Below, piece by piece: positions 12,620-57,230 of a stretch of 59,367 bases of DNA (the stretch's first letter is position 1; each line of letters begins with the position of its first letter). The position numbers and the translations under genes were made by a program. A model generated the notes under the pieces. It did no database searches and was not told where the DNA came from. It saw only the letters and a program-made list of their open reading frames with translations. Origin of the DNA: Catajapyx aquilonaris (Eukaryota); NCBI GenBank assembly GCA_000934665.2, contig KZ538605.1, forward strand, positions 1 through 59,367, written 5' to 3'.

Positions 12620-15600
12620 ATGGACGGACAAGGTCGCGCAACCCGAGGAAGGGCTAAGGGACGCACCCGGACCCTCGTCCCAGCAGAAGGTGCAGCGAGG
12701 CCTGGGGCTCCACCGGCAACAGCCCAGGTCGGCCCTCCAGTAGGAGGAGCAAGAGGAGTAGTTCCACGCCAGGTGCCGTCTGCTCCTGGGATGCCCCAGG
12801 GAGCAGCAGCAGTACCACCTTCGCAACCACGACAACAGCCAGTTGCAAGTTCTCAGCCATCCCTGGTTCAGGAGATGGCTCGCCTGGACGTGAAGTCAGG
12901 TTAGCTACATACCTGTTTGCTTTCGTTACTTTTTCTTTTTTGATAGCCTGAAGGTTGGTTCAGTTTTGTGGCAGCGGCAAGTACTCTTGTGACACAATGC
13001 AATGCAGTTCACAAATCACCTGGGGTGCCAGGGCTGTTTCTGTAGATTGTCTCTCAAGTCAGGTTACTCCTTTCTGTCAACACAATGGGGAAGTAGCCTT
13101 CATTTTGGAAACTACATAATAAATTCGCCCATATTTTTTTGGATTTTTTTGGCATATTCCGTTTTAAGATATCAGTTTCAGTTCCGGAGATATTGGCGTT
13201 TTTTCGTATGCAAATGGTGACGTCACTGTTTGCCTAGAAAATGTTGACGTCACGCGAAGTGAAATGAACGCAAAAATGGTGTTATAGAACGCGCCCCGTC
13301 ATTGTTGTAAAATGCTTCGCTGTTAGAAACCGTCCCATTCCGTGAGCAAGCTAGCGGCCGGGGCGCGTATTTATTCCAGGCCGCTCAAATCGCTTCTGGG
13401 CTGACAGTGGTGCCAACTGGTAGGAATTATGTCACCCGAATTCGGCACATGAATGCCCCCTTTCTCCACCTCGATGGCCTACAGCCGCCTTGCGAATGCT
13501 TTCCGTCGTGTCCGCGGTTAATTCAAAGTCAAATTCCTCATATCTCGCAGTCAACCAGGCATTTCAGTGTACCTTACGATTGGCACCACCCGGCTGCCCA
13601 GTTTTTCCCGCCAATTTATCCAGTAATGTCATTTTGATGCAACAAAGTGATGGAATGTATGTTTACAGGCCTGGGCTAGCTAGTTATGAACAAAAAACCC
13701 AAATCCCAAACCAAGGCTACTTCCCCATTATGCAAATTTGTCATGGAATTGCTGCATTTGTCAGTGTTTCTCAACAGCACATTGCAACATGCGAGCTGTA
13801 CAAATCGTGGGAATTCGGTAAAATGAGAACTAGAAAACCTGAAGATGACTGTTTTTTCTTAAGCTGGGAATCCACGTAGAAGTTTATCTTGCCTGAGTCC
13901 TCTGGCGCGAGAAAACATTGTCGAGACACACTCTTTCGCCCCTGAGGCCCCTGGAAGAGGGATTAAAATTGACAATTTTCTACTTCTCTTCTGCTCCGGG
14001 CATGCGCAGTTGGCTTTTCCTGCAAGAAAAAACTGATCGAGTTGGCCTTACTGGCGTGCGGGAGGGGGGTAGTAGTCGGTTAGGGCAGCGGCCAACCGTC
14101 ACAAAGGGAAAAATAAAGATTAGGTGTGTATCCGCTGAAGATAGGTCTGTATCCACAAGGAAGGAGGTTAGGCTTGGTTAGGTTAGGTTGGTACACCATA
14201 CCCCTTCCATAATCCAAAAAATCCATCCTTGAATCTTCGCCTTTGCGACACAGCCAAGCTGCCCCCAGTCACCACTCACCCTGACGCCTCCCGCACGCCA
14301 GTTTCCGAAAAAACTTTAACGTGGGTACCCAGCTGTAGGTTTACTAGACATCCTGTACAGTGAAAGGGGAGGGGTTCCCAGCTTCTCCGACTAATCACAT
14401 CCCAGGTCGAGATCCACTGATCAGTTCAAATATGATTTTCCCTTACCCATGTGTCACCATTCACTTCAATGAGCTGATATACTTCATTCAGCCTTTTAAA
14501 ATATAATCTTGAGTCACAATTATTATTTGGCTGTTTGATCGTGTAGTAATGTGACCACATTCTGTGTTCGCTTCCAACAGCACATGTAGTTCAAGTTAAT
14601 TTCTCATTCTTAAGGAAACGGAAACGGCAATGGCAACGGCAACGGCAACGGTGGTGATGTACCAGTTGGCAGGGGTGGCGTCCGTGGTCGTCGCGAACAG
14701 CGTATGGAACTGGTCCGTACGCGACCAGATCATATCACCAGCAAGCAGGGCACAACTGGGCGTGTTATCCAGCTCATGGCCAACTATTTTGAAGTGCTGA
14801 AGCGTCCTGAGTGGACTCTTGTTCAGTACAGGGTTGATTTTTCGCCTGAAGAGGATCGCACTTCGGTGCGTAAGGGCATGCTGCGGGCATGCAAAGATCG
14901 CCTAGGAGGCGATTACATATTTGATGGCACTGTGCTGTACATGAACCGTCGTTTGGAAAACGACAGACTGGAAACCTGCTGCGAGAGAGCAACAGACCAA
15001 GCCAAGATTCAAGTGACTGTTCGAATGGTTGGGGAATTGCAACCGTCGGATCACATGTATCTGCAAGTCTTCAACATCCTCCTGAGGCGTACAATGGGCC
15101 ATTTGAACCTCGAGGAGATTAATCGTCATTTCTATGATCGCCATGCAAGCATCAAGCTCTCCGATTTTAACTTGGAGCTCTGGCCAGGGTATATAACATC
15201 CATTCGGCAACATGAGCATAAATTGCTTTTGTGCACAGAGATTCATCACAAAGTATTGCGCCAGGACACAGTTCTCTCGCAACTCTATGCATTTTACAAC
15301 CAAGACAGTCGCAACTACCAGAAGATAGCTGCTGAGGCCTTGCTAGGCACAATAGTGATGACTCGTTACAACTCAAAGACTTACAGGATTGACGATATTG
15401 ATTGGAATAAGTCTCCACAAGACACGTTTCCAAAGCGCGATGGAACAGAAATTTCGTACATTGAGTACTACAAGCAACGGTATGGAGAGATTGTTAAGGA
15501 CATGAGGCAGCCACTGCTTGTGTCTCGTCCTCGCAAGAAGGATGTCCACCGTGGTCAAGTTGAATCACTTTATCTTCTCCCGGAGCTCTGCTTCATGACA

Positions 15601-17981
15601 GGGCTGGACCAAAACATGAGGGAAAATTTTCAACTCATGAAAGCGATGGGTCAACATACCCATCAGGCTCCAGATAAGAAGGTGATGGTTCTGCAGCGTT
15701 TCATGAGCCGCATTCACAGTGAGCCCAAGTGTATGGCAGAATTATCAGGCTTCCAGCTTGATTTTTCCAACAAGCTGATCGAGTTCCAGGGCAGGATGCT
15801 CGAGCCGGAAGGCATAGTGCTGGGCAATAATAAGAAGGCGAGCGGCGGACCACAAGCTGACTGGACTCGTGATCTTCGCAGCAATCCTATGCTGAAGGTG
15901 AGAGAATTCTATATGATAAACATGTTGAGGGGGAGGAGAGTTCAATGAGGAGCATGCATTGTACAGTACCAGTCAGAAATGAAGTACTGGTGGTGCCACT
16001 GTGTTTTTGCCGTCACCAGTACTTAACCACTTCTGACCAGCACTGTGCATGATAACGTTTTAGGTGAAATGGGGGTGTGAAAAGTTCAAATTTAGTTACG
16101 TTGTTTTAAATTGTGACATTCCATCCCTAGGTGGTCCCTCTGCACAATTGGGCTGTGATTGCACCAGAGCGCAGCCGCCGAGATCTGCCTGGTTTCCTGC
16201 AGACACTGAGCCGTGCTGCTTCAGGGATGTCCTTCAACATGCAGGAACCCCAGATTGTATACCTCACTGAGGTCCGCCCACAGCAGTATGTTACTGCCAT
16301 CGATAAGTGCTACAGCAGCATGGGCCCTCAGATGGTGATGATAATTTTGGGAACCAATAGGAAAGATCTGTACGGAGCAGTCAAGAAACGATGCTACGTG
16401 GAACGGGGTATGGCATCTCAGGTGGTGGTGGCAAGGAACATGACTTCCAAGGGTGTCATGTCCATTGCTACAAAGATAGCGATCCAAATGAATTGTAAGC
16501 TTGGAGGAGAACCATGGTCAGCGGAAATCCCGCTGAAGAATTGTATGATGGTTGGGTTCGACGTCTATCATAACACAGCGCAGAAGGGGACATCGGTCGG
16601 GGCACTGGTAGCATCAATGAATCCAGTCTACACCCGTTACTACAGCACAGTGGCAATTCATCGCCATCAGGAGGAACTCTCCAATTTCATTTCGACCAAC
16701 ATGATGCAGGCCCTTCGCAAGTACCAGACTGCCAACGGGAAGCTCCCATCGCAAATCATACTATACCGTGATGGTGTTGGGGAGGGACAGGTGAGCAAGT
16801 TCACTTTTTATTAATGTACTGTCTTCTAACAGTAGAGGTAATTGGTTGGTTCCATAGGTTTTGAAGAACATGTGGATGGATTCAGAGAGATGTTCCAGAC
16901 CATGTATTAGAATGTCTGAAACTATACCAATTATCCGGGTGCAGATTATCTGTCCCTTGCCAAAAAAAATTTGAAAGTCTAAAGGAATGTCGGTATGTCT
17001 TGCAAGCAAATAAATTTAAAATCTATTATTTGGACTGAACTACATATTTAAAGCAGGATTCAGTATGTACAGTAGTTCGTTAAAAACCTCTAAATAGGTA
17101 GGTCATTTTTATAGTGTCGAGGAGCGTTTTGTGGTCAGGAGTACGGGGTACTTCGTCTTAAAAGCTACTACCCAACATGCCAAGATGTCGAAACTAGGGT
17201 GGCTAGGTAAATGGAAAACCGAAGTTCATAGTACTGGCAACAACATGAGCCACGGTGGCAAAAGAGTGAACCTGATCGGGCCCAATCTTATTAATCAGTC
17301 CGATCCACTACGGCTCATGTCGCTGTCGACCATTAATGTTCAGCACTGTACTGGCTTGTATACTCCTGGTCAGGCCCCTGACCCAGTCATGTCTACCTCT
17401 CTTATGAAGCCAGCTGTTCATATGATTGTAATGTAATGGTGCAGTAAACAGTGTCTACTTTCTCCAAGCTAGGAACTACTCGCTGACAAGACGCAACAGT
17501 GACTCATGATTTTCTCTTGCCTCCACAGATCGGATACGTCAAGGACCATGAGCTTGCCCAAGTGAAGGCCTCCCTGGCCACAGTCTATGGGGGGGATTCC
17601 TTCAAGTTTGCATTCATCATTGTCAACAAGCGACTGAACACCCGCATCATGACTGCTCAGCAGGGAAATCCCCTGCCAGGAACCATAGTGGATGACATCA
17701 TAACTCTTCCGGAGAGATATGACTTCTACCTCATCTCTCAGACCGTGCGGCAGGGTACGGTGTCCCCGACCTCGTACTCGGTGATTGATGACAGCTTAAA
17801 TCTGGAGCCAGACAAGATCCAGAGGCTGACGTACAAGATGTGCCACCTGTATTTCAATTGGAGTGGTACCGTCCGGGTGCCTGCACCCTGCCAATACGCC
17901 CACAAGCTGGCCTACCTTGTGGGAGAGTACATCCACAGTGATGTTCATCCTGATATGAGCGACACCCTTTTCTTCCTGTAG
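12620..17981 (+). CDS. piwi: PIWI-clade Argonaute (Piwi/Aubergine-like), about 891 aa
   Basis: Exons 12620-12899, 14615-15897, 16131-16790, 17529-17981 join in frame at GT-AG sites. RG-rich N-terminus, PAZ (TRYNSKTYRIDDIDW, LLPELC), MID (QMNCKLGG), PIWI with D-E-D-H (GFDVYH, QEELS, YRDGVG, AHKLA), PIWI-clade C-terminus LFFL. Confidence 0.96.
13084..13729 (+). mobile_element. Non-autonomous DNA transposon of about 650 bp, copy 2
   Basis: TIR AATGGGGAAGTAGCCTT / AAGGCTACTTCCCCATT. Colinear with 10621-11290. Confidence 0.85.
13862..14334. mobile_element. MITE with internal inverted repeat and TTAGG-like repeats
   Basis: Outer imperfect IR AGCTGGGAATCCACGTAGAAGTTT / AAACTTTAACGTGGGTACCCAGCT. 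Inner IR ACTGGCGTGCGGGAGG (14051) / CCTCCCGCACGCCAGT (14287). GGTTAGGCTTGGTTAGGTTAGG near 14166. Confidence 0.6.
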
Positions 17982-18718
17982 GCATGCTGGCTGTGGGAGC
18001 TAGCAAGGTCACGTTTCAGATCAGATTTTGGATTAGTTTTTTTTATATGTCTAAACAGGAAAAAGATTAAGTTCAGTTTTTATTTGAAAGTCTTACTCGG
18101 ATTTGGCCAGGAAAGTGTTGTTGGTCATAATCATGTTGAGAAAAAGTTCTGTTTTTTTCTTTTTGATTTGAAGTTTTCTTTGTAAGCTTAACTGGATATA
18201 AGTTGCCAATAATTGGCAGAGTGCCTAGGGATATTGTTGTTTGGAAACTGGACCATTCCAGTCAGACGAGGCTGATGCACTGCCAAACTAATGATACGGG
18301 TGGTGTGACTTTTTTTATATTGCGGTCATGAACGGCGTTGTTTATCAAGTGCCTTGTAATTAAAGTACAGTTTTGAAAGATTCTGTGTATTAATTTATTG
18401 TCAATTGTCACTACCAGTTTACAGATTGCATGTGTTGGGCCCTGCGAGTGTAAAGTCAACGTGGGGCCATGTTGAGGAAATGTGGATATCTGATATCTTA
18501 AGAATGATTGCCTCGAGAGGAAAAACTAAAGCAGCTGCAATTTGTTAAGCATGAAAAGTTGCAACCGTGTGCTTGGACCTGTGGATACAAAGAGTTGGGT
18601 AGCAAATAGAGAAAAGTACAAGTAGCCCCAAAATATTTACTTCCTTTATAAATGTAATTGGTATTCAAATGTGTAATACACTGTAAAAAATCCATAATCC
18701 CAAATGCCACTAATACAT

Positions 18719-19988
18719 TTACTTTCCAACCATGGATAAAATGCGTGCTTCTAGATCCTGCGAATACGTTTCATAAGCGAGCAGGAGTTGATGACGAAAT
18801 TCACCACGGTGGGCTTGAGCAGCTTCTCTGAACAGGCTAATGAAGGTGGTCCTGAATTCCTCATAAGTTACTTTGCTTTGATCAGGAATGCGATCATCTG
18901 GAATGTGTTTCATGCCCAATGTGCAAACTGAATAGATAAGGATAAGAGGGCGGAGGTCATCCAAGGCTTGTTGCAAGGAGGCAAGAGAGGGACATTGCTC
19001 CGGACAGCCTAGTTTGGTTAAGGTTTTGTGCAGGTGGGAGTGGTACAGCTTCGTGAGGTCATGAAGGTGCATCTTCATGAACTCCGGCTTCGTGGAAGAC
19101 ACCAGGAGCTCAACAATTTCTGACATGGGATGGGCCGCACGGATCATCTGAAAAGAGAAATAGGTCACTGAGCAATCCTGACAGTAAGCTGGCACAACGC
19201 ACCTGGAAGTCGACAAGTTTCATTCGCTTCACTTCAGAATCAAACAGAAGGTTGTGCAGCCATGCATCTCCGTGACATATAACATCGTCTGGATGGCCAG
19301 GACCCATTGCATGTTGGCCTACATCACGCATGTGGGTGTACAACAGCATCAGTTTAGACATGACTTCGGCATCAGACTTTTCCAGTGTGGACAAGGCCGC
19401 TTCATATGGTGTCTTATAAAATAGTGTCAAGTGTTCATCTGTTTTAGGGTCCCATGTCCTCTCTTGCAAGACTGGATACATCTCAATCAGGGGTCGTCCA
19501 GTTTTCTTTCTTAGTGCGTACGATGCTGAGTGAAACTCTGCCAATGATTTCACTGCAACCTGAACATGATTCAGGTCAAGCTTTGGTGTACTGCGGTATC
19601 CAAGCTTGGTCAGGTCTTCCAAAAGCACCAGGTCTTCAGTGGCCAAGTAGCAACGAGGCACAAGCGACTCAACCAGTCCGGAGCAAGCAGAATTCAAGTC
19701 CGCCATAACTTGATTGTAAAAAGCCGGCTCCTTTTTATACATTTGCAAAGGCTCGAACAGCAATGATCGGTATGGTGATGAAAATGGCGGACTACACTTT
19801 ACAAATATATTAATCTGATTCGGTGCATGTTCAGACTCCACATTCAAGTGAAGCAACGACACATGACTAACCAATCCAGTACCACCCCCTGAAAGTGGAG
19901 CCTCCTTTGTACTCCTTATTACCAAAGACTCATCTGAGTATTGGATGCGGAGGGAATGCTCCAGTACGGCCACCGATGCTGAATTCAT
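18719..19988 (-). CDS. Ecdysteroid kinase-like (EcKL/DUF227, choline/APH-kinase fold), about 404 aa
   Basis: Exons 19988-19203 and 19147-18719 with a 55-nt GT-AG intron. Motifs IFVK, KEPAFYN, VPRCY..LVLLEDL, LAEFHSAS, CHGDAWLHNLLF, LVDFQ. Confidence 0.9.
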
Positions 19989-20530
19989 TGTGCCGCACCA
20001 GCTTATCCGCACCAACAGAAAATGGCTTTCGTGCTCTTGACTATTATCATTGGATTCTCACAGACGCTTGACTCATATCATGTATCCAATATGTAATCCA
20101 AGATGTAATCTCATGTAACAATGTACAGTCTATTTCACATATTATAAAAAGCTGCTATTTTTGTAGCTAATATACAAATATAATAGCTATATACAGCGCC
20201 CCTATTATGTATTATCAGAACTAGTAGCTTCATCTGTCAACCCCTCTAGCCTCATGCGTCTGGTCACTCTGACCGAACGTGTCCATTGCTCTCTCGGCAT
20301 ATTTATTCGGCACTTATTTTTTACGCTTTCCCCCATAATTTTGAGGATCGGGTAGAGTGGTAAGGAGAGGACCAGAGGGGAGACGTGGACCGATTGGAGA
20401 CTGGCAGGCTACCACGTAGCTGTGACGGAAGTGCATGAATAGGTGAAAGGGGCAGAGTCACGCCAAAGGGGCTTGTCTTGCCTGCTGTGTTGGAGGGACA
20501 GTTTTTGCAATACCTTATTATAACTGAGAG
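19989..20530. promoter_or_regulatory. Divergent promoter region, EcKL / TMED2
   Basis: About 540 bp between opposite start codons, with a CpG-richer segment from about 20250. Confidence 0.5.
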
Positions 20531-22759
20531 ATGCATTTGGACGGAGCGGCGGTGGCGTTTCTGTTGGCCTTCCTTTGGTCGGCGACTAGCAGGGTAGATG
20601 CGTATATCATCACAGTGGATGCTCATGCGGAGGAGTGCTTCTACGACAGGATCAAGTCGGGGACCAAGATGGGTGAGGAGCCTGGCAGATGGTTGGGTTG
20701 CGCTTGGGATGTGACACATAGCTTGTATTGGCAGTTGTGGTAACGGTCTTACGGGTTGTAACCTGTTGCAGATATGATAGCTTCTCAGGCAAAACTTAAA
20801 GGGGTGTTCAAATATGGGTAGGCATTTGAACGCAACCGGCTTCCTGCCGTAAGAGAAGGTGGGGAGTAATAATGGCACCGAAAAATTGGGGAAGAATCTT
20901 TGTTCGTCAACAACCCAACCAGAATTTGTGTCAGGGATCTCAGGTTATGTTCCCGAAGTTATAAATATTGTGGCATACAGCACTCCATTCAGTTATGTGG
21001 CAAGTTTTCCTTTACGTATAATATTGGCACTGTATCAAAAATGCAAATTACTAATGTTGGTGGAGCACAGGGAATTCATTAGTGACATTACCGTGTAACT
21101 TATGAAACTGCCAAGTATTCCTTGCTATGAAAGATGAGCATGGTTTCTCTTTGTGACATCTGATTTACCTGTCATATAACGGGCATAATCTAATTATCTA
21201 CAAGTGCCAGCTGATTGGAGTGCCATCTGTAACATTTTCATCGATATACAATGTCACATAGTAAAACATATGGTTTGACATTTTCATGTTCATAATACAA
21301 AACCTTTTAATTACTTTGCAGGGCTGACTTTTGAAGTAGCTGAAGGTGGTTTTCTGGATATAGACGTGAGGATTGTGGGCCCTGATGGGAAGACCATCCA
21401 CCAGGGTGACCGTGAAAGTAATGGGAAGTACACCTTTGGCGCTCACATGGATGGCGTATACACCTACTGCTTCAGCAACAAGATGTCCACCATGACCCCA
21501 AAGATCGTTATGTTTTCCATGGACGTTGGAGATGCTCCACAGGAAGGAGAGGGTGGTACAGAAGGTCAATATTCCTGCAGTATATCATCAAAAAATATCC
21601 TCATTAATCTCAGATAATTATTATAATGACAACCTTGTGTGGGCTATAGCTACTCTGAGTTCAACAGAAGTTTGGCAGTTATCCTGATAATTCATTATTC
21701 CCATCTTTGTGATTGTTTATAATCAGGCCCATGTCACTTCTGCTGTCAGATGTAAGAAGACCTTAACTCAAAAACTAGTAGGGTGAAAGTCGCATGCATG
21801 CCCTGCACTAATACCCCCTGACACAGTGTGGATTAGTGCAGGGCTTGCATGCGACTTTCACCCTTACTCGTTTTTGAGTTACGGTCTTCTTACATCTGAC
21901 GGCAGACTTCCCCCTTAGACGTATAGCTACAGTAGGGTAATTATTGTGTCACGACCAGGGTGAAAATTGACACTGGCGGCACTACATCATTCGCCAAACC
22001 GCCATCTTGTCTAGGTGCATCTGATAGTAAGTCTTGAGATCGAACCAATCGGCAGACTCACCTGCTGCCTATCACTTGAGTGCACCTTGACAAGATGGCA
22101 CATGGCAGTATGGCGAATGATGTAGCGCTGCCAGCCCCAATTTTCACCCTGGCCGAGACACAATAATTACCCTACCGTGTTCGAGGGGTTATAATGTTAC
22201 GGTTATGCTAAAACTTATGCTGTGTTCTTGGAGTAGGCAGCCTACACAGTGGGAGTGGAGTTCTTGCATGAAATTTACACTTCAGTGCTGAAACTGTTAG
22301 CATTGCAGAAGTGGAAAAGCCATGTATCTCATGAGGATATGTGACACTGTCAAGAAGAAAATACATGACGTCTGAATAACTGAAATTTTTTCAATGGACA
22401 ATTATTAAAAAAATTACTGTGTATTATGAGTCTGAAAGCCCAGTTCTACTCCTGTTGAATAAAATACAGTAACTATTACAATAATTGCAATATGATAATA
22501 CAAGAACAATTTCCAATCAATTTCAGCTCATCACAACAAGCTGGAAGACATGATTCGAGAACTGTCTACAGCACTGACTGGAGTTAAGCATGAACAGGAA
22601 TACATGGAGGTCAGAGACAGGATTCACCGAGCCATCAATGAGAGCACAAACTCCCGTGTGGTCATGTGGTCATTCTTTGAGGCACTTGTGTTGGTTGCCA
22701 TGACCCTTGGTCAAATCTACTACCTCAAGCGCTTCTTTGAGGTGAGGAGGGTCGTCTGA
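20531..22759 (+). CDS. TMED2: Transmembrane emp24 domain protein 2 (p24 beta), 205 aa
   Basis: Exons 20531-20672, 21322-21564, 22527-22759. Signal peptide, [41 protein letters not shown]-terminal [13 protein letters not shown]. Confidence 0.96.
21740..21905. mobile_element. Hairpin MITE family A, copy 1 (TMED2 intron 2)
   Basis: Arms of about 75 bp: CTGCTGTCAGATGTAAGAAGACC.. / ..GGTCTTCTTACATCTGACGGCAG. Near-identical to 33460-33626. Confidence 0.85.
21930..22177. mobile_element. Tc1/mariner-type palindromic MITE
   Basis: TA-CAGTAGGGTAATTATTGTGTC / GACACAATAATTACCCTACCG, with pairing extending about 90 bp inward. Confidence 0.75.
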
Positions 22760-23398
22760 AGAAGAAGTGAAGGCGTGGACTATCTCTTGGGGGGGTGGGG
22801 GGAGGGGGGATCCAAAGTGGGCTTTTTCTGGGGGAGTGTGTTTTAAAAGTGTGGCATGAAATTTTTGGGACTGGGGAGAGTGGAGATTGGCGTTTTCTAG
22901 GTGAATAAATGTGTTGGCCCTATTTCTGAATTTGCCTTCTAATTTAAGTGGCTGTGACTTATAGACAACAGAATTTTCAGGCACTTTTTTCATTAAAATG
23001 CGTGCTCAAAACTTAGTCGTTCTAGGATGAGGATATTGGAATAATGGTCAGGACGGGTCAAGAGAGTTAGACTTTTTGAGTATTGTAAAAGGATCCTTTC
23101 CAGTGTTGTTGTTGGCTACCATTATGATAATTTGTAGCGAGTGTGTTTCTAATGATATAGATGTGTAAGTGAAACTGATTATTTGAAATGTAGGGAAGGA
23201 TAAACACTATTTCACACATTGTGTGCCCATTTAACACTTAATGTATTTGAAGACATGCAAGACACACCCCCATTTCAGAAGATCATATGCAGGAAAAAAG
23301 TTTGTAAGGTATTTTCGCATATAAGCCCCAGGGCAATTTTTAAAGCCTTTTTGGGGGGGGATAAGTGCATCTTATATGCCATTCAATACGGTAGCAAC

Positions 23399-23533
23399 AG
23401 TGCGGAAAACGAAACGGCGATCTGACGTCATCAAGGTTTCCGTGGAAATACCCTCACACAACAGTATGAGTAAACAATGTCAACAAGAAAGAACAATGTA
23501 AGAAACGACGATCGCCGTTTCGTTTTCCGCACT
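23399..23533. repeat. 24-bp perfect inverted repeat, MITE-like
   Basis: AGTGCGGAAAACGAAACGGCGATC / GATCGCCGTTTCGTTTTCCGCACT. Abuts a pogo-like MITE end (CTTATATGCCATTCAATACGGTA). Confidence 0.65.
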
Positions 23534-23786
23534 TACAAATTACCAACAGGAGTTTTGTTACAAATGAACATCAATAATTTTGTGTTTAGCATTTAATACA
23601 TATGTACAATTTGGAGCTGCAATTTTGACATTATACTTGATACATCAGGTCTAGGTACTATCAGCACAATATTCTTCCAGACACTTTCACATACTGTGTC
23701 GATAGTACATGTTCAGTAATGTGTTGGTGTTGCATAAGTTCATCACGTGATGAATTTTGGAGAAATGTGTGGTCAGCATTTGAAAT

Positions 23787-24155
23787 TTAATGAGTTAGCC
23801 ATGCAGGAAGCAAAGGTGTGGTTTCAAGCGTCTCATGAATTGCAGATTGGCTGTTAATGTCATGCCGTCTTTCATAAAATCTTCTTGTGCTAATAGCACC
23901 CAGAAAGGCACAAATTGCCATCACAGCAAACGTGATACCAATGACTTTCCCCTCAAAGGAATCAGGATTTGCATAAACCACTGGTACAAGAGTTACAAAT
24001 GACAGGACAAATCCCAGGAGAGATCCTACGTACATGCTGTTCACCACTGCTCTTTCTTCGGATGTTAGAGTCTGGATATGTTGCACTGGCACATGCAGTT
24101 CTGTGCCTCCTTCATCACTGATAAGTACTTCAATTTGTTCATATTGTGGGCTCAT
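23787..24155 (-). CDS. Orphan 2-TM protein, paralog A (122 aa)
   Basis: Single-exon ORF with two hydrophobic segments, LTSEERAVVNSMYVG motif and C-terminal ETTPLL. Homologous to B and C. Confidence 0.75.
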   Translation of the reverse strand: MSPQYEQIEVLISDEGGTELHVPVQHIQTLTSEERAVVNSMYVGSLLGFVLSFVTLVPVVYANPDSFEGKVIGITFAVMAICAFLGAISTRRFYERRHDINSQSAIHETLETTPLLPAWLTH

Positions 24156-25573
24156 GTTCCTGTTTCACATGTATAGTTTTTCACTGGAAACTAGGTTGAT
24201 GACGAATGAGTATTAATGAGGCATTTTTATGCAATTAAACAAGCAGTTTTCACAAGTACTCTGTTCCCAACCTTATGATGATCCTTCTTGTAATTGAGAT
24301 GTTCCTACAACATCATAAAGACCCTTGGTGCTCACTCCCTGTTGCACATCAGAAAACAAGCCAATAACTGCAGAATTAATCACGCAAGAGTTAGCCGAGC
24401 AGGTGAATGCCCAATGCCAAAGTAGCAAATCCAGCAGAAGGCAATGCTCACATTATCAGTGTAAGATTAACATGTGAAGGGTACAGGTGGTGTGCCACTT
24501 AATATCTGTCAGTGACACTGAAAACTGTTTGTTTTTTAATTGCTGGGTGCAGGATGGGCGATGGGGTGGGGGGTTTATTGATACTTATTTTATGACATCA
24601 ACATTTGATGACTGACTGATGATTCTTATTGCTGTGTAAGAGAAGTGACTTGCATTGAAAACTGAATGAAAGTTGATACCTCCATAGCAATTTATTAGTG
24701 TGTAGTATGTAATAATGCTTTCCTCTTGCAATTAACCCATTCATTAAACCAAAAATTCATTAGATTATGCACAATTTCAACTAATGATTCAGCATAGCAC
24801 ATATTTGCATCCTTAGTTTCTTAGCCCTTAGCAGTGCAGTCCAGCTCAGCTTTCAGTTGCTACATGTGAATCACTAATGACTAACTCCAAAAACACATTA
24901 AAACATGCATAGTAAATGGCCCTGAAAACATGCGATAGTCGTACTCCAAGAATTCTCAGAAGTGGTACTGCTGTGACGTAAACAATTGTGCCACTGTTCC
25001 ACCCACTGGGTGAAGTGTAAAAATTGCTGAGTTATTGTCCAAGTCCCAATACCTGTCTTCATAGTAAATAGTAAAAACATAGTAATAATAATCCAGGAGG
25101 TATTCCTCCGCAGAGGTATATCACCAGGACCTTTATTATGACTTCACGTTACACATTGGAACCTTTTACGATGATTAGTCCCAAAAGTGATGGGGAGATG
25201 CTAGTGTTAGTAGTGTACTTGTTGTAAGGGGCAATTATAGTACATTTCTTCACATAGTTAGTCAACTGGAAGTCCCACCAGATGAAACTGAAGAAACCCT
25301 AAGCTAAGGGAAAGGGAAGGTAGGCTTGGGGTCATTCAGGATATTTATTGGCAAATTTTGCATTCATCCGCCAGTTATCAGTATAACTGCTAAGTCCAAG
25401 GAGCACTAGGGATATATTTTTAGTCAGGTTGAATAAGGTGTTATGGAGTGGAAGTGATATTTGAAAATGCATCCATAACCGACTTTGCGGTGAACATACA
25501 GAATTTCAGTGTGTGTTGTAATACCTGTTTGGAATGTGATAAAGCAGGTATTCACTTCTAGTTGCACTATTCA

Positions 25574-25972
25574 CTAACACAGTGTTTTAGGAAGCAAAGG
25601 AGTGGTTTCACACATTTCCGGATCTCGTGGCTTTCCTCCCTGATGTCGGTTGTGATATTCATAAACAATGATCGTACCTAGAGAAGCAGTGAATGCCAAC
25701 AAGCAAAATACAATTCCACAATATTGAATTGGGAGCTGAAAAAAGTGAATAACTAATGGAACACATATTATGAAAGCCAATGAGAAAATGATGAACCCTA
25801 AATAACCAATGTACATAATGTTTATAACAGTTTTTTCTGTGGAGGACAACACTTTCTGATGATCCAGGGGGCTGTGCATTTCCATGCCATTGTCTGGAAT
25901 TATGTAGATGCCAGCAGGTCCTTTCATTTTTTTTTGAGAAGTTGTGTCACTGTTGAAGTAGGGTGTCTTCAT
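25574..25972 (-). CDS. Orphan 2-TM protein, paralog B (132 aa)
   Basis: LSSTEKTVINIMYIG, two hydrophobic segments, ETTPLLP. Confidence 0.75.
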   Translation of the reverse strand: MKTPYFNSDTTSQKKMKGPAGIYIIPDNGMEMHSPLDHQKVLSSTEKTVINIMYIGYLGFIIFSLAFIICVPLVIHFFQLPIQYCGIVFCLLAFTASLGTIIVYEYHNRHQGGKPRDPEMCETTPLLPKTLC

Positions 25973-27054
25973 TGTTTGTACTTGAAGGAGTCGATTCAGA
26001 TCAAGAGTTTACGAGGGAGCGTTGTAGATAACGTTGCACATTCACCAGGGTTTTTTCTTCTTGCTCTCTATTTCTGCAATCATTAAGAGACATATGCAGA
26101 TATGCAGAAATATTACAATAACATGCTGGCAAAATGATTTATAGCCCTACCTCATGAGAGATCTGGTTTCAGATACGGGTCCACTGATGTGTGTTTGCAT
26201 CCAACTTGCACACTGTCATGATTTACTACACTGCACAACAGTGCCCATTGGTGACTGCAGGCTAGTTATCAGTTGGAGATTAAGATGTGAATGGGTACAG
26301 CCAGGCACAGCTCATTTGTTGGCTACTATCAGCCAGACTCAGGAATTACAGTATTATGGTCTGCAAGTTGGACATTAACATTTTACTCCTTGCTGGTGAT
26401 TCAAAAGCATTACAGTTTTATGGCCTGCAAGCTTATTAGCATTTTCAATGACAATGTCACCGTGCGTTCTCGCATTCTTGGTGTGTGAGTCATTGACATT
26501 TATGCTAAACTTGACGTTAAGCTATGGAGTGGTATAGGAGTTATGTAGTTGTGGTAAATAGTTTTATCATTACGAGAAGGGTGCATCAACCTTTTGCATC
26601 ACCAGTTATTAAAAAGCCTTGAGCTAATGTTTTGCATTATAATATGACTATATGAACCAGTTTACATAGTGTACACAGCAAATAATGGCAGATGTTTGCC
26701 TGCTGTTGCGCACACTGTCCTTGGATTTGTTTGGACAAAGTAACACAAATATATCAATTGTGGAATTGGTGCAGGTGTAGCAATCTGGTGATATTAATCT
26801 TAGATATGACTGCTACATACCCTTATGTGTGAGAAGAATACCAAAGTTTCACAATTAGTTTTTTCTATGCACCCAGTTCACTTATCAAACTAACAGTAAT
26901 AATATTAAATGAAACAGTAATATATTGAGCAACTTGAATCAGAATATTGCGATTAAACTTTTGGTATAAAACTAGAAATCGATCAAGCTTACAAGAGAAT
27001 TTTGCTGTTATAATTTCTTACTAAATGCACGTTATTAAATATAATGTTTCAGCG

Positions 27055-27390
27055 TCATCCAGCAAGTAGTGGAGTAGTTTGAGACCACCTGCAGTTTTTC
27101 TTTTCAAAATGCTTTTGCAGTGCAGTAGCACCAGCGACACAGGCTAGAGACAGGAAGCAGGTTGCAATCACTAGAAATCCCATTATATTGATGTCTGCTC
27201 CATAATAAGCAATAGGTCCCACTATTATGAGTGAAGTTGTGGCCACTAGAAATGATGACACATACATTATTCTCAGTACTGCTCTCTGGGTAGAAGAGAG
27301 CAAGTGATGGTGATGGACCATGTTATGTTGCACCTGATAGGAGCTTCCTACATTTAAGACATCCTCGGTGTATTTACTTTGAGGGCTCAT
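27055..27390 (-). CDS. Orphan 2-TM protein, paralog C (111 aa)
   Basis: MSPQ start shared with A, LSSTQRAVLRIMYVS, two hydrophobic segments, QTTPLL. Confidence 0.72.
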   Translation of the reverse strand: MSPQSKYTEDVLNVGSSYQVQHNMVHHHHLLSSTQRAVLRIMYVSSFLVATTSLIIVGPIAYYGADINIMGFLVIATCFLSLACVAGATALQKHFEKKNCRWSQTTPLLAG

Positions 27391-28490
27391 GTTGTGCCAG
27401 TCTGTCTTGTGCTTGGCAGAATTATGAAGTTATTAGCAGTAATCCAGGTATTTTTTGCGTTACTGCTGGTGTCATGTTCCGGACAGGTGGAAATGCTGCA
27501 CAGGAAGACCTCTGAAATTGAAGAGCACTTAAAAGTAACCTGCTGTAATATGCTAGGAGTTTAGTTGGTAATTGTTGGAAAATAACCCCGACATACTGCA
27601 TCGCTACGTGTCGCATTTGAATTCACCAATCAGTAGCTGCTTAACTTGATATCACCTGCATTGATTTGAGATTTTATCTAGTGCAGTAGGTGGCATTGAG
27701 TGCAGCAAGTGTCATGGCAAATATGTTGACGGTTATAGAAGGCAAGCATGTTAATGATGCATATGAATACCAATGAAAGTGGCAAGCAGGTGTTTCAGCC
27801 TTTGAAAGGAGCAGCTGGTAATGTTAGGCCATACACAACCTTGGAGTTATGTTTCATACCGCAAATGTTATTCAAAAGCAGCAATGCACACTTGCAACAT
27901 TTCCCTATGAAAAGGTAGCGAGCAATGAAGAAAACAAGGCAGTTAGCAAAAGTGGGCTTAAACATTATCACAATGTTTCTACTGTGCATATTTATCGGGA
28001 CATATTGAATTTATTGACCTCATTGAGAAATTGCCAATGTTAGGTGTTGGTCAAAAGAATAATTTATATTTACAAATTCAGGTGAATGTCACATGCCAAT
28101 ATTCCTAATAATGGGGTATGGATTAATAACTTTGCAACTTATTGAAACCACTTGAATTTGAGTGTACTCACAGCTTGCAGGTCAAGTTGGGATTGGCAAG
28201 GCAGTAATTACAGGATCATACAATGTGATATGTAGAAGACTGTGCTCTCGTATTTTTGATATACACAAACTTTAGTGTGTTTCAATGATCAAGACTAGTC
28301 AACAAATGAACAGGCAAGTCTTAGATAGTGATGTTGCAACTGGATAGTAAGCGTCTGTCAGCACTGCTGCAGTGTTATCAGCATGACCTTAAAATGAGAT
28401 TAACAGGGCACAGGTGAAATTCAGGGCATTAACACTGACCCTGTATAGTCAGTATCTTTATTCGAATGTACAGAACAAGTAAATATAGAC

Positions 28491-28557
28491 CAGTGATTCC
28501 CAACCTGTGGGTCGCGACCCCAGTGGGGGTCACGAATCACATTGGTTCAACACACTG
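28491..28557 (+). mobile_element. Degenerate hAT MITE
   Basis: CAGTGATTCCCAACCTGTGGG terminus, the same family as 32223-32339. Confidence 0.5.
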
Positions 28558-28978
28558 TATAGTTATTGAGGTCAGCCCATATTTCACAACATGCAATGCT
28601 AGCTATGTCCACAAATATTTGTCCACAAAAGATACTTTTCAGTGAGCTTTTTATGGAAATAGTTACCTCTGCATATAAATAAAATAGCTTTAGAATTTAT
28701 TATTACAGTCGAATATACTTGGTTAGATGTTACTATATCCAGTTAAAATTGTTTATACAAGTACTGACAAATTACTGTTGTCATATGATTAATGCGGATT
28801 TACTTGGTCATTCCAATAATTCATCTCATTCTGCATGTTGCTTCCAGTCAAGTCACATGTTTTTATCTGTCTTGTTCACTCTGCTTCTGTGACATGATAC
28901 ATTTCCTGAACCCAATATGTGTTCCCAGTACTAGCCCAAGTGTTTTCATTGCTTTTAAGCGTGACTAATTCAAGGATA

Positions 28979-30384
28979 TTAGTTCTTGAGTTCACAGCTG
29001 GTTGCCTCTGCTGGACAGCCTGGGTAAGATTTCAGACGAGGGTCTTCCAGGTCAGGTGTGTTTACACAGACGCAATTTGGTTGCTTCTTGCCAGCATGAT
29101 ACATGCGCCGAGGTACTCCTTCCCAATCCCGCTGTATGCCTCCACTGAAACAGGGTAGTGAATGAGGTAAAATTATCACAGATTTTCATTATAGTTCCAA
29201 CCTGAGTTTTGTACACCAGAATCGGCGCCCAGTTTCCTGGTTCCATTCAATGTTACAAGGTGGGAAACGCTTCTTCTCTTGTTCCTCATCTGATTTCTCA
29301 TGACGAGCTGATTCTATATAGCTGCGGACCATCCGTCTGTATTCAGTCTCTGCACCAGTTGAATCGTAGTAACGACCTATTAGCTTCCCTAATGGTACAA
29401 TAGATACAGAGTTATGAAATCACATCTCTGTTATTTGCAGAACAGAAAATTAAATATATGTCGACTTTTAAACCCGTTTCGGAAAATATATTATAACGTT
29501 AAACCTACATGCTAAAATCAGATTAATCAAATACCATTTCATCAGATTATCTCCTGCAAAAAAATGATTTTAGTTATACTTCTTGATAATGTTTTATAAT
29601 GAAACTTCCTGAGCGACAAGGTAACTCTGTTCTTTAAAATAACAATAATTGCTTTTCAGTACTATGGTTCCTTTAGTGGCTGATATTTAGTCCCCACCAA
29701 GTGAGTGCCGAGATACATGTGGGTTCAAGACCGAGATCTGATAAGTGGGATGATTACAGCCAGATTACATGACTTGAAAGGCCACACTCAAGGCCACATA
29801 TGAAACTCTTACGTATCATTAAAATAGGCAAATGTGATGGGTATATCCCAATAACATTGCTGCTGATTCATCAGATTGGGTTGATAAAATACAGTGAATA
29901 GCATACCAACATAAACATAGTCCTTTTTGTAGAAGTCACTCCAGTCTTGCAATGCCAAGTAGTCAGAAGCTGCCAGTCCATCAACAGCATCTGTGACTGC
30001 CTCCTCAGAGAAGTCTCCAGTAACAAACGACCGAGAAGCATCCCGTCCAGCCAGACCACTATAATGTCCTCCAGGTCCATAGTGCTTCAACCCTCTGCTG
30101 ACATCAAACACCTGCCCCAGAATAGCCAGATACGGTCCTCCACTCTCTCCACCCTTGAACATGGCCAGTTCTTCTACAGTAAACATCCTTGACTGCTTGG
30201 TTCCATCCTGCTGCTTCTGCTCATCAGAGGACAACCATGAGTGTATGAACCTAGCCACTGGTGTAAAGTGTGGCACTAGTTTGGCCATTTGCTGAACGAC
30301 AGCTGGTTTGTCATGAAGCCAGACGATCAAGGCAGCAAAACCCGCCACTGTCAACGCACTGATCAATACTACTTTACCCAGCAT
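28979..30384 (-). CDS. CYB5D2: Neuferricin (cytochrome b5 domain-containing 2), 276 aa
   Basis: Exons 30384-29907, 29388-29202, 29144-28979. N-terminal TM, YLAILGQVFDV..HYGPGGHY..AGRDASRSFVTGDF, GKLIGRYYD, FPPCNIEW, SGGIQRDWEGVPR, C-terminal CVC..YPGC..C. Confidence 0.93.
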
Positions 30385-30807
30385 GATTTCAAACAACCGC
30401 ACCGCACAAGCCCACACGCATTAATGCACCGCCATATTGGCCACACCAATGTTGCCAACATGAACAGGCAGGTACATAAAAATATGCTACTTTATTATTT
30501 AAACTGCAGAGTACACCCAATATTACTATTTATAACATGTATAATTACATATTGATTGTAATTAACACATTTTAGTATAATTTGGGAACAGTGTTCCGCA
30601 AGATGGCGCGTGGAAAGAGACGCACAAGAAGAGAAGGGAAAAAAGTGGGGAATAATCGTGTCCTGCGTGACGTTCAGGCGGGTGGCGACCGGCCGGATGC
30701 TTCGAGATACCATCCGTGGTAGAGGAATCGATTGATTGATTGAGCTGGTCATATCCCACCCTGGATAAGCCAGTGGGGATTATCAGGAGAGGTCCTGTTG
30801 TCTGAGG
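30385..30807. promoter_or_regulatory. Divergent promoter, CYB5D2 / INO80E
   Basis: About 420 bp between start codons. CCAAT near 30446 and YY1/TISU-like CAAGATGGCG at 30599. Confidence 0.55.
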
Positions 30808-32690
30808 ATGGTGACGACGATGGACGGAGGCGGCGCGGATTCGGACGAGACGCTCAACTATAAGCAGAAGTATAGGAACCTCAAGAGGAAGCTCAAGCTG
30901 CTCATTTACGTAAGGGGATAACACGTTCAGATGTCGGTGCAGAATCGTTGGCTGTTAGTGTGACAGGTGTTGGACTGCGCTTCGTAGTCTCCTTGAACGT
31001 AATTCCAATATTTCATTTTTTTTTAGGAAAATGAGTGTTTCCAGGAGGAGTTACGCAAAGCACAGAGGAAGCTGCTCAAAGTGAGCAGGGATAAAAGTTT
31101 CCTGCTGGATCGGCTCTTGCAGCATGAGAAGGTGGAAGCCTCGAGCAGCGACAGTGATAATACTGAGTCATCTGATGCGGAAGCGGATATAGCCAATAAG
31201 GCCGCAGCTGAGGCTTTCAAAAAGTATGTGCATAGTGAAGCTCAAATACCTGTCCTGAAAAAGTATTGGCACAATATTATCATGGACAGTGAATGTGTTT
31301 TTTTTACAATGAAGTGTGTGATAATATTGTGTTGATAGTACATTCATTTAAAATGATTGTGAAAACAGCTGATTATATTAGGGAGAATCAAATGAAGATG
31401 CTGACTAACTTTTCCTTTCAGACGAAAGAGTGAGACTACTAGCTCTGGGCCTGCTGCTGTCTTCAGTAACAAAATGCATGGGATGCCCATTAAACGTAGA
31501 AAGACTTCTACCCCCCGTCAGCCGAAGCAACAGCAACAACAGCAGCAGCAGGCAATTGCCAACCACCAACGACAACAACAACAAATTGCTCATCACCAGC
31601 AGGTGACAACTGTGGCACAGAAGATGCCCCAGACATCAATGGCAGCAGCAATGTCAGCCATGGCTGCTCCCACCTCCTCATCTGCTACATCAGTTACCCT
31701 TGGGGTTGCATCAGATGGACATATGACCCCAGAGGAAGTGGAGCGGCACCTGGAGTCCAGGCACTTGGAATCGCGCCATCACTACCTTGACCTCTTGCAT
31801 GAAAAAGCACCATTGACAGTGCCAAATGAGATGTTCAGCAACGAGGCCTCCCTCGATAGGTAAAATGCTGGAATTACTTGTGATTATGTAGAAAATGAGG
31901 AAGCGCTTGATATAGAGCCATGAGGGGGAACCAAGTAATTTTTACACCAATCTTGAAAGTCCATGTAACAAAAATCAGGGGCTCTAGGTGTTATTAATAG
32001 TTACAAACCAGAAATTAATAGCAAGAGATATCCTTCAATATTTATACATTAGTGCCATCCTCATGTCCCCATGCAGTATCAACCAAAAGTGTCCTGATAC
32101 TTAATTTAATCGCTCAATAGAACAAGGCACATGTCCACCCCGTTTCAACCTGGACGTGGCCCCATGTTCTATTGGGTGATTTAATTGATTTTCGATGTAA
32201 TGTAAAATTAGTTCCTTTAGCACAGTGGCTCCCAACCTGTGGGTTACGAAGACTTTTACAGAGGACGAGTGGTGCTGCGGTAATTTTTACTTTCAATCAT
32301 ACAAGGGGGTTGCGACCCGAAAAAGGTTGGGAACCGCTGCTTTAACATGTAACTTTAGAGTGTGTTCAATAACTAAGTTTACAATCATACCAGAGAATAT
32401 GTTGTGGGTGCTTATGTGTCAAGTTGGTATTCCTAAGCCAGTCAATTTGAGTTGGCCAGAAGAAGCAAATGTGAAACTCCCCACCACATCACATAATTTC
32501 TTCTCTCCTGAAACCTTGATGAGCTTAATTATGAAACACCATGTGTGTCAGATGTAATTGACGACATTTTTTAACTAAAAAATGTTGACACTATCTTTTT
32601 ATCTATTCCAGTGATTCAAATGAAGTTGAATGTGAGACATCTCCCAGCAATCTTGGTGACGACAGCATCAGCATTGATATTCCAGAATAA
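30808..32690 (+). CDS. INO80E: INO80 complex subunit E, 271 aa
   Basis: Exons 30808-30909, 31027-31223, 31422-31859, 32612-32690. [49 protein letters not shown], poly-Q insert, PLTVP..MFS, C-terminal IDIPE. Confidence 0.93.
32223..32339. mobile_element. hAT (Charlie/Buster-like) MITE in INO80E intron 3
   Basis: TIR CAGTGGCTCCCAACCT / AGGTTGGGAACCGCTG with 8-bp TSD CTTTAGCA / CTTTAACA. Confidence 0.85.
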
Positions 32691-32751
32691 TATGTAAATA
32701 ATTATGATCAATTAAACAGTCACAAACAAGATGAGGTACTTTATTCAATAT

Positions 32752-33787
32752 CTAAACAACTGACGTGCAATATCCACATCCTGAGCAGACCATAATTATT
32801 CCAGGATCTTCCGGTGGGCAGGCAGTGAAATTTGGAATGCATGAACAACGTGCCGAGTGTTCATCCACCTTCTCATTCACTATAGTGGACACCTCCTCCA
32901 GTGAAAGCTGACAAGGTATGGTAAACCCACACTCACAAGTCAAGGTTGCCATTCCCTGCTGCATCGCCCTTATATGACATGCCGGACAAAAGACTTCATT
33001 TGATTGTAGATGGCTGACAACCTGGTTCATACCCTGCTCATACTCCTGCAGCATTTCCTGCTCTGTAAAGAGATAGTCCGTATGTTAACTGTTCAGTTCT
33101 CATAAAAATGCAGGTGCAGTACCTTGTAGGGCTAACTCTCGCCTGAGATCTTCCATAAATTCCTCCGGGTCCTCTTCTTTGCCGAAAAGAGTCCGGCGAC
33201 TCGTTGAGGAAGCTCTGAACCGCCGCATTTCATCTTTGATGATCTCGTCCAGTACACTGGCCACGTACAGTGTAGAACCACTCATGCGTCGAGCTTCAAA
33301 CAGCTTGTCACGATTAGCACTCATCCGTTCTTGGCATCGCTGTAGAAACAAATCCGTAATGGTAGTATTCTGATTATGTTACGCATCCACAGCAGGGGGA
33401 TGTTGACAATATTATTAGATAATAGTGACTTTTTATATTGTTATGTGTGCGGACAGCCGCTGCCGTCAGATGTAAGAAGACCGTAACTCAAAAACTAGTA
33501 AGGGTGAAAGTGGCATGCACGCCCTGCACTAATCCCCTCTGAGTCGGGAGGGATTAGTCCAGGACATGCATGCGACGTTCACCCTTACTGGTTTTTGAGT
33601 TACGGTCTTCTTACATCTGACGGCAGAGCTGGACAGGGTGTAACAATACCTGTCGAAAGGAGTCTTTCCAGTCACAAGACTTGCTCCCTTTCTTGTACAT
33701 CTCTCGATGGGACATAGCCCTCCTGTTGCTCTGGCCCCGGGGCGGAGTTCCGAGACAAGCGTCCATCTCCTCACTCAACGGCAACAT
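32752..33787 (-). CDS. RPAIN: RPA-interacting protein, 214-221 aa
   Basis: Exons 33787 (or 33766)-33650, 33339-33123, 33062-32752. HREMYK..WKDSFRQRCQERMSANRDKL, and a C-terminal zinc finger VFCPAC..CECG..HSARC..CSGC. Confidence 0.9.
33460..33626. mobile_element. Hairpin MITE family A, copy 2 (RPAIN intron 1)
   Basis: CTGCCGTCAGATGTAAGAAGACCGTAACTCAAAAAC.. with the exact inverted partner ..GTTTTTGAGTTACGGTCTTCTTACATCTGACGGCAG. Confidence 0.85.
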
Positions 33788-56000: not shown

Positions 56001-57152
56001 TAGCAATTCCAGCAATTATGAGACACAGTATGGAGTATGGTGTCGAATGATCCAAAAAGGGTTACTCAGAGGCCTCCTGGGAGGGCCAAGAGTGAACCTG
56101 GCTGTAATTTCTATTTTTGTGAATCGCAGGAGATAATGTGAACCTTTTGATTTCTGTTATGAACATAGATTTTCTCAGAAGGGAGCCAAAAATCCCTTCC
56201 GTTTCCGCATTGGGTAGGTTCCATAATATCCGTCACAAAACACATTGCATGCCCTATGCATACGCCCATTCCCAGAAAAATGTCCGAAATGGATAGGTTT
56301 CTGCTATACCCAGGGTCCGTAATGGGCAGGTTTCACTGTAATAGGATGCTACTTGCCTTCAGTCTCATCTCTTGGGAAGTTTCCAAGAGATGACTGGAAA
56401 GGAATCGTATGACACCTACAACCCTGATGCTTGGAAATGCTTCCATTACTAACTTGTCAAATATGTGCACTTGAGGTCTGGAGTCAAGTTTAATGATTTA
56501 TTTTTATTAGTGAACTGTTGTTACATTGGAAAACAATTTTTGCTAATACTGTATCTCTTTACATGAGAATTATGATATGATATGGCCTTATGAATCGTAG
56601 AATATTTACTGGACTAATAAAACGTCCATTTTTCATGTAACAACTTCACGGAACCCTTTGGGCACCCCAGGTTTCACTGGTGGAAGACTGTATAAAACTC
56701 TCTAGTGCTCCATATAGTCCATAATCGAGATTAAAATATAAGGAAGTTATTTTACTATGAACAGGTTTACACTTATTTCTGAGGATTGTGGAATATTCCA
56801 TGTTATGATTTTAAAGTGCATCATTGTGTCCAAAAAGTAAGCCCAAGCGTTCGATGTTGGAAATCACGTATATGCCTCTGAGTCATACTGGCATCCAGAC
56901 TAGCAGGTCCGTTGAATCTGTAAGCACTTCAGTTGAGTGACTATTATGCAGGTCTGTCTCAGGGAAAAACGTGGGATGCATTCTGACCTAATCTAACGCT
57001 AGGGACATCTATATAGGTAGGCCAACATCAAGGTCAGTACTGGAGTAACCACAATGTATTCATGTATGATAATTTTAATGCTATGTAAGGGAGGGGTCAT
57101 TTATTATTCTCATATTGAGGAATTTCTCATGTGGGAATAGCTTTGATGGGTG

Positions 57153-57230
<78 letters not shown>

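Follow-up and report, generated by a model that had tools for sequence, protein, structure and literature searches.

Signals of the form [DE]xxxL[LI] are read by the adaptor complexes AP-1, AP-2 and AP-3. Those of the tyrosinase/LIMP-2 type reportedly carry a proline ahead of the leucines. Here, we describe three neighbouring open reading frames (ORFs) on the minus strand of a 59,367-nucleotide stretch of DNA from Catajapyx aquilonaris (contig KZ538605.1, positions 1 to 59,367; called the window for simplicity), which encode small membrane proteins (called A, B and C) with the conserved motif [E/Q]TTPLL near the C-terminus. With an acidic residue at position -4 (in A and B), a proline at -1, a leucine pair and a short, presumably cytosolic tail, the motif is built like the tyrosinase/LIMP-2-type signals; these usually lie nearer to the membrane than the 17-24 residues found in A, B and C. 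The hexapeptide of A and B, ETTPLL, is identical to a working dileucine signal in a cytosolic region of human ATP10B: with the exchanges L30A and L31A in the N-terminus, a reporter stays at the plasma membrane and fails to reach late endosomes, so that both leucines are required for late-endosome localisation, and the exchange E26A has no effect (PMC7530900). ATP10B differs in being a P4-ATPase with ten transmembrane segments (TMs), in carrying the motif at its N-terminus and in lacking homology to the three proteins outside the six residues; as judged from the sequences, what is shared is a short linear motif and not common descent.

In size and architecture, the three proteins resemble described two-helix families. 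TMEM100 (PF16311) and PIRT (PF15099), two vertebrate regulators of transient receptor potential (TRP) channels, are hairpins of about 110-140 amino acids (aa). The IFITM/CD225 dispanins (PF04505) are likewise small and combine endosomal sorting motifs with a pair of hydrophobic segments; their first helix is intramembrane and they carry conserved palmitoylated cysteines. LITAF-like proteins (PF10601) possess a hairpin membrane anchor and are endosomal or lysosomal. A handful of microproteins regulate endosomes, lysosomes and channels, and small membrane proteins are frequently overlooked by annotation. A, B and C, which are missing from both large protein libraries searched, are a new sequence family of this familiar kind, i.e. 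hairpin membrane microproteins, of which B is expressed.

Results and discussion

Three tandem paralogs conserved at the protein level

The three ORFs of 122, 132 and 111 aa were found at exactly the coordinates given in the initial annotation of this DNA (Table 1). The next longest ATG-initiated ORF in the region 23000-28200 encodes 75 aa, and none of 500 mononucleotide shuffles of 22900-28400 contained three ORFs of at least 111 aa. Pairwise BLASTP comparisons (A and B, E 8e-19, 35% identity; A and C, E 2e-11, 28%; B and C, E 9e-9, 25%) establish A, B and C as true paralogs. Their MAFFT alignment contains 16 invariant columns: the initiator methionine and two histidines five residues apart in the N-terminal tail; the leucine and serine of an L-S-S block, followed by a valine, a methionine and a tyrosine, just ahead of the first hydrophobic segment; a proline in the late part of TM1 and an isoleucine and a glycine in TM2; and, close to the C-terminus, the run T-T-P-L-L, which accounts for five of the 16 columns and is more strongly conserved than any other block. 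The features on which the family had been proposed, i.e. L-[ST]-S-[ET]-[EQ]-[RK]-x-V-x-x-x-M-Y-[VI] before TM1, two hydrophobic helices and [EQ]TTPLL near the C-terminus, are present in all three proteins. The tail of C reads SQTTPLL, with Q where A and B have E and with LL kept. The invariant H-x4-H pair of the N-terminal tail is enlarged to a histidine run in C (HNMVHHHH). A tyrosine-based motif (YxxPhi) proposed for A exists as YEQI, but it is not conserved, since YFNS and YTED stand at the corresponding place in B and C, respectively. When an unfiltered hidden Markov model (HMM) of the three sequences was run over all 2584 six-frame fragments of the window, A, B and C were retrieved at E values of 5e-53 to 3e-59 and no fourth copy or recognisable relic appeared, the next best fragment scoring E 4.8.

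Synonymous differences are saturated among the three pairs (proportions pS 0.66, 0.77 and 0.79), with non-synonymous differences (pN) of 0.47-0.51. As pS exceeds 0.75 for A-C and B-C, the Jukes-Cantor synonymous distance is undefined for these pairs and no numerical dN/dS is given. Identity is highest at second codon positions (0.55-0.59), followed by first (0.38-0.47) and third positions (0.33-0.42), and invariant L, V, S, H, T and P residues are encoded by differing codons in the three genes (e.g. CTA/TTG/CTC for an invariant leucine and GTG/GTT/GTA for an invariant valine). All three frames remain open despite the saturated silent sites, and all three ATGs are preceded by A at position -3. 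Because silent sites are saturated and amino acids are nevertheless kept, the three ORFs are old duplicates under selection on the protein. A, B and C are thus old tandem duplicates conserved at the protein level, in agreement with the old and diverging family described in the initial annotation, and we are highly confident that they are real genes.

Expression and gene structure

A single public sequencing run (X1) matched the stretch. The kind of this run is not on record; its contigs were compared with positions 14000-33500, and every one of the 12 listed joints is bounded by GT..AG or CT..AC; the joints lie in the genes for Piwi, EcKL, p24 and cytochrome-b5, among others. Since its contigs are spliced, X1 is judged to be RNA. 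A 933-nucleotide (nt) contig covers B; it joins 25196-26073 to 26151-26205 and leaves out the 77 nt in between. Four letters of this contig deviate from the window, every one within the 3' untranslated region (3'UTR), and an in-frame stop is located upstream of the B ATG at 26009-26011. The mRNA of B is a minus-strand transcript of two exons, the second of which contains the entire coding sequence (CDS). The description of the genes as single-exon therefore stands for the coding part and fails for the mRNA of B, which is spliced in the 5'UTR (26074-26150). RNA cover was seen for B only, and its absence over C and most of A says nothing about their expression. Splice-site strings at matching alignment positions upstream of A and C (Table 1) suggest that the 5'UTR intron may be conserved across the three genes.

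Two further observations were made on the transcripts. The 5'UTR of B (26001-26200, minus strand) holds a 40-codon upstream ORF that runs across the exon-exon boundary and stops 29 nt short of the main ATG. At 23265-23427, several RNA contigs stop with loose ends into unlike sequence and local variant letters occur; the segment may be a repeat or the place where the p24 gene and paralog A converge with their 3' ends.

Predicted membrane architecture

Each protein contains two hydrophobic 19-residue windows with a mean Kyte-Doolittle hydropathy of at least 1.8, separated by 5-8 residues. In A, the N-terminal tail is followed by TM1 (about residues 42-62), the loop NPDSFEGK, TM2 (about residues 71-90) and the C-terminal tail with ETTPLL. 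An AlphaFold2 model computed from the three-row alignment is a helical hairpin with helices at 32-62 and 67-111, in which the predicted local distance difference test (pLDDT) reaches 80-86 in blocks within 41-90 and stays below 50 for residues 1-28 and 101-117. The block S-E-E-R-A-V-V-N-S-M-Y starts the first helix of this model, before its entry into the membrane.

According to the positive-inside rule, the side rich in lysine and arginine (K/R) faces the cytosol. Each protein has four K/R in the first dozen residues past TM2 and zero or one in the loop, so that both tails are predicted to be cytosolic; TTPLL would consequently be exposed there. The low pLDDT of the tail (<50) adds a predicted disordered setting. 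The leucine pair is located 17-24 residues from the membrane, and two to six further residues follow TTPLL.

A candidate dileucine sorting signal

The sequence of events that best accounts for these data would be as follows. A, B and C would be small membrane proteins folded as helical hairpins, their N- and C-terminal tails both cytosolic, and the conserved S-x-E-R-x-V-x-x-x-M-Y block would form a helical cytosolic entry into TM1. The disordered C-terminal tail would present [E/Q]TTPLL as a [DE]xxxL[LI] signal to AP-1, AP-2 or AP-3, and its reading would have the proteins internalised or routed to endosomes or lysosomes. There the hairpin would probably associate with some larger membrane protein as its small accessory subunit, a role suggested by its size and architecture. 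Routing by adaptor complexes via TTPLL is the best-supported mechanism, and we favour it tentatively, by analogy and from the model, because the hexapeptide is identical in ATP10B, where it acts as a dileucine signal, because a cytosolic and disordered setting is predicted, and because TTPLL is the most conserved block.

An acidic residue at -4 together with L[LI] is found in A and B (ETTPLL), and C (QTTPLL) has the leucine pair without the acidic residue. In ATP10B, the E26A exchange is without effect, so that the glutamine in paralog C need not abolish the signal.

Several points nevertheless weigh against sorting by adaptor complexes. The acidic residue is absent from the motif of C, and 17-24 residues is farther from the membrane than in many lysosomal signals. 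The T-P within TTPLL is a possible proline-directed kinase site, and TTPLL could be another docking motif. The AlphaFold2 model rests on three sequences and has a mean pLDDT of 63 and a predicted template modelling score (pTM) of 0.36. Since B has a loop without charges (QLPIQY), it might be a monotopic hairpin instead of crossing the membrane. RNA support consists of one contig from one run, for B alone, and the run perhaps stems from the assembly's own project.

The strongest competitor, somewhat unlikely in our assessment, is that A, B and C are real, taxonomically restricted membrane proteins residing in the endoplasmic reticulum, the Golgi or the plasma membrane, in which TTPLL is a partner-binding motif or one regulated by phosphorylation at T-P. 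Paralogy, transcription of B and coding constraint support real genes equally well in this case, and both the Q at -4 in C and the distance of 17-24 residues from TM2 speak for it. It is at variance with ATP10B, in which the exact hexapeptide serves as a dileucine signal, with the prediction that the motif lies in a disordered tail on the cytosolic side, and with the rank of TTPLL as the most conserved block of the family.

The locus is of value in that a single short motif is conserved across three diverged copies, one of which has RNA support. Should TTPLL be a sorting signal, this would be a new family among the few endolysosomal microproteins of invertebrates; if it is not, the family would be one of many lineage-restricted families of small membrane proteins in animal genomes. 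Either outcome would be of little surprise to a specialist.

Relationship to known families

Pfam matches up to E 10 were considered, of which those above about E 0.1 may be dropped by the HMMER filters; nothing scored above its gathering score and no match was common to two paralogs. The sub-threshold matches (MgtE, Claudin_2, DUF202, SUR7, LITAF-like and COA2) were inconsistent. One of them, DUF202 (PF02656), was rejected as a candidate, with 14.1 bits for A against a gathering score of 23.4 and B and C unmatched. A three-sequence profile run against a library of 5.8 billion protein clusters gave no match at E <=0.01 among 636 word-sharing candidates. An exhaustive HMMER scan of 1.84 billion protein representatives gave two matches at E <=0.001, both of which were rejected as repeat proteins that match by composition: a 5841-aa protein (P0001) matches through a repeated ETTP segment, and a 951-aa protein (P0002) has repeated TM segments that precede KYFE[RK]K. 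PDB sequences yielded no match (best E 1.1, PsbZ), and none of the 104 matches listed by Foldseek against the PDB reached E <=0.001, all being generic helical hairpins. Pattern searches returned 118 matches in viral contigs and 216 in metagenome contigs, none of them confirmed. In the Atlas feature search, the best scores of 0.84 (B) and 0.82 (A) lie below the lead level of 0.9 and point to unrelated clusters, among them TMEM100 (0.78) and PIRT (0.77) for B and bacterial and viral clusters for A. The initial statement that the family is not a recognised one thus agrees with the Pfam, PDB-sequence, Foldseek, library, viral and metagenome searches.

These negative results have to be read against the content of the libraries. 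Neither of the two large libraries returned A, B or C themselves; the neuferricin-like neighbour reached at best 45% identity with 72% of the query covered, or 58% with 52% covered, and among the matches listed for the Piwi neighbour there were only arthropod proteins, at 33-48% identity. As the clade is poorly sampled and the libraries contain no close relative of the organism, orphan means here that no relative is detectable in these searches. At the rate of divergence seen in A, B and C, a protein of 120 residues would go undetected at that distance, and the lineage-specific status of the family is unproven.

We consider it unlikely that A, B and C are very divergent members of a described two-helix family (TMEM100, PIRT or LITAF-like) that were missed as short and fast-evolving. 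The Atlas likenesses of B to TMEM100 and PIRT point in this direction, as do the weak LITAF-like match to the hydrophobic region of B (E 0.02, 15.5 bits against a gathering score of 23.8) and that of A to DUF202. All of these candidates, however, lie below the noise levels of the respective tools and are confined to one paralog each. B, like the rest of the alignment, lacks the zinc-binding CxxC pairs located on either side of the hairpin in LITAF-like proteins, and A and C have no LITAF-like match at all. Neither PF16311 nor PF15099 is matched by any of the three proteins at E <=10, and the Atlas scores concern B and not A, so that the resemblance to TMEM100 and PIRT would, at most, be one of function, in the role of a small accessory subunit. 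The relation to IFITM/CD225 suggested in the initial annotation could not be upheld, as PF04505 is equally absent at E <=10 for all three proteins and no such conserved cysteines occur in the alignment. The PDB and Foldseek results given above likewise speak against a described family.

More doubtful still is a broader proposal by analogy, in which A, B and C would be the founding members of a crustacean- or arthropod-restricted family of endolysosomal hairpin microproteins, comparable in role, and not in descent, to IFITM, TMEM100 and PIRT. The His-x4-His pair and the juxtamembrane helix would then regulate a lysosomal channel, a transporter or metal handling, and tandem diversification would reflect tissue-specific or immune specialisation; that H-x4-H (HNMVHHHH in C) is a metal or pH-sensing site is speculation. 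Very improbable, finally, are untranslated A, B and C, be they ORFs that arose by chance in non-coding transcripts or pseudogenes in decay: the upstream ORF of B and a third-position GC content (GC3) of 0.34-0.39, closer to intergenic GC (0.38) than to that of the Piwi (0.55) and EcKL exons (0.47), would suit them, but frames that stay open at saturated silent sites, the high conservation of second positions, differing codons for invariant residues, the shuffles and the A at -3 of all three ATGs do not.

Flanking DNA and feature coordinates

The three gene units were compared by blastn with a word size of 7. Only the comparison of A with B gave significant pieces, two in number: a 22-nt stretch over the ETTPLLP codons with 95% identity and a 35-nt element that is 86% identical (E 1.9e-5) and lies 294-331 nt upstream of each ATG. 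The earlier remark that the flanking DNA shows no obvious similarity is mostly right, with this A/B element as its exception. No other copy of the element occurs in the window at up to three mismatches, and it is a candidate for a shared promoter-proximal element. The element contains ACTGATAA, which we take to be a GATA-type core. The window has four exact matches to ACTGATAA, with 2.48 expected window-wide, and all four are confined to 2.2 kb (24117-26273): two in the shared A/B element, a third in the 3'UTR of B and the fourth within ORF A, but on the opposite strand. These clustered matches may be GATA-type sites.

At the ETTPLLP codons of A and B (23805-23826 and 25589-25610), 21 of 22 nt are identical and six of seven codons are the same, in contrast to the saturated synonymous sites elsewhere in the two genes. 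This could be due to micro gene conversion or to an added constraint at the nucleotide level.

Table 1. Positions of the paralogs, their transcript and candidate regulatory features, and further genes in the window.
Feature	Position	Strand	Basis or remark
Paralog A CDS, 122 aa	23787..24155	-	ATG-to-stop ORF, standard code
ETTPLL codons of A, candidate [DE]xxxL[LI] signal	23808..23825	-	
Candidate A 5'UTR intron, 75 nt	24261..24335	-	Splice-site strings, MAFFT position matching B intron
Upstream element of A, contains ACTGATAA	24453..24486	-	blastn against B
RNA contig over B, 933 nt	25196..26205	-	At least 378 nt of 3'UTR, CDS and 5'UTR
Paralog B CDS, 132 aa	25574..25972	-	ATG-to-stop ORF, sole copy with RNA support
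ETTPLL codons of B, candidate [DE]xxxL[LI] signal	25592..25609	-	
B 5'UTR, exon 2 part	25973..26073	-	RNA contig
B 5'UTR intron, 77 nt, GT..AG on minus strand (CT..AC on plus)	26074..26150	-	RNA contig joint, sequence checked
B 5'UTR, exon 1 part, 55 nt	26151..26205	-	RNA contig
Upstream element of B	26266..26300	-	blastn against A; 61-95 nt upstream of the RNA contig 5' end
Paralog C CDS, 111 aa	27055..27390	-	ATG-to-stop ORF
QTTPLL codons of C	27064..27081	-	
Candidate C 5'UTR intron, 74 nt	27466..27539	-	Splice-site strings, MAFFT position matching B intron
Piwi-family gene (PAZ, Piwi_N, ArgoN), N-terminal GN-repeat, RG-rich start	14613-18325	+	
EcKL gene, ecdysteroid-kinase-like, PF02958	18626-20057	-	55-nt intron 19148-19202 in RNA contigs
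RPA-interacting protein C-terminal domain gene, PF14768	32752-33378	-	60-nt intron 33063-33122 in RNA contigs

Gene neighbourhood

The family is adjoined by a p24/EMP24 gene on the plus strand, with splice joints 20671-21321 and 21562-22525 in RNA contigs, and, on the minus strand, by a neuferricin-like cytochrome-b5 gene; its placement between two ordinary genes, as first described, was thereby confirmed. The best Piwi matches, which are arthropod proteins, and the presence of an EcKL gene nearby fit a non-insect arthropod. Farther away, a 3034-nt RNA contig splices the Piwi gene across 15895-16129 and 16786-17525. Elsewhere in the window, 29 N letters represent assembly gaps, and a long trinucleotide run at 57110-57385 corresponds to about 25 asparagine codons on the minus strand.

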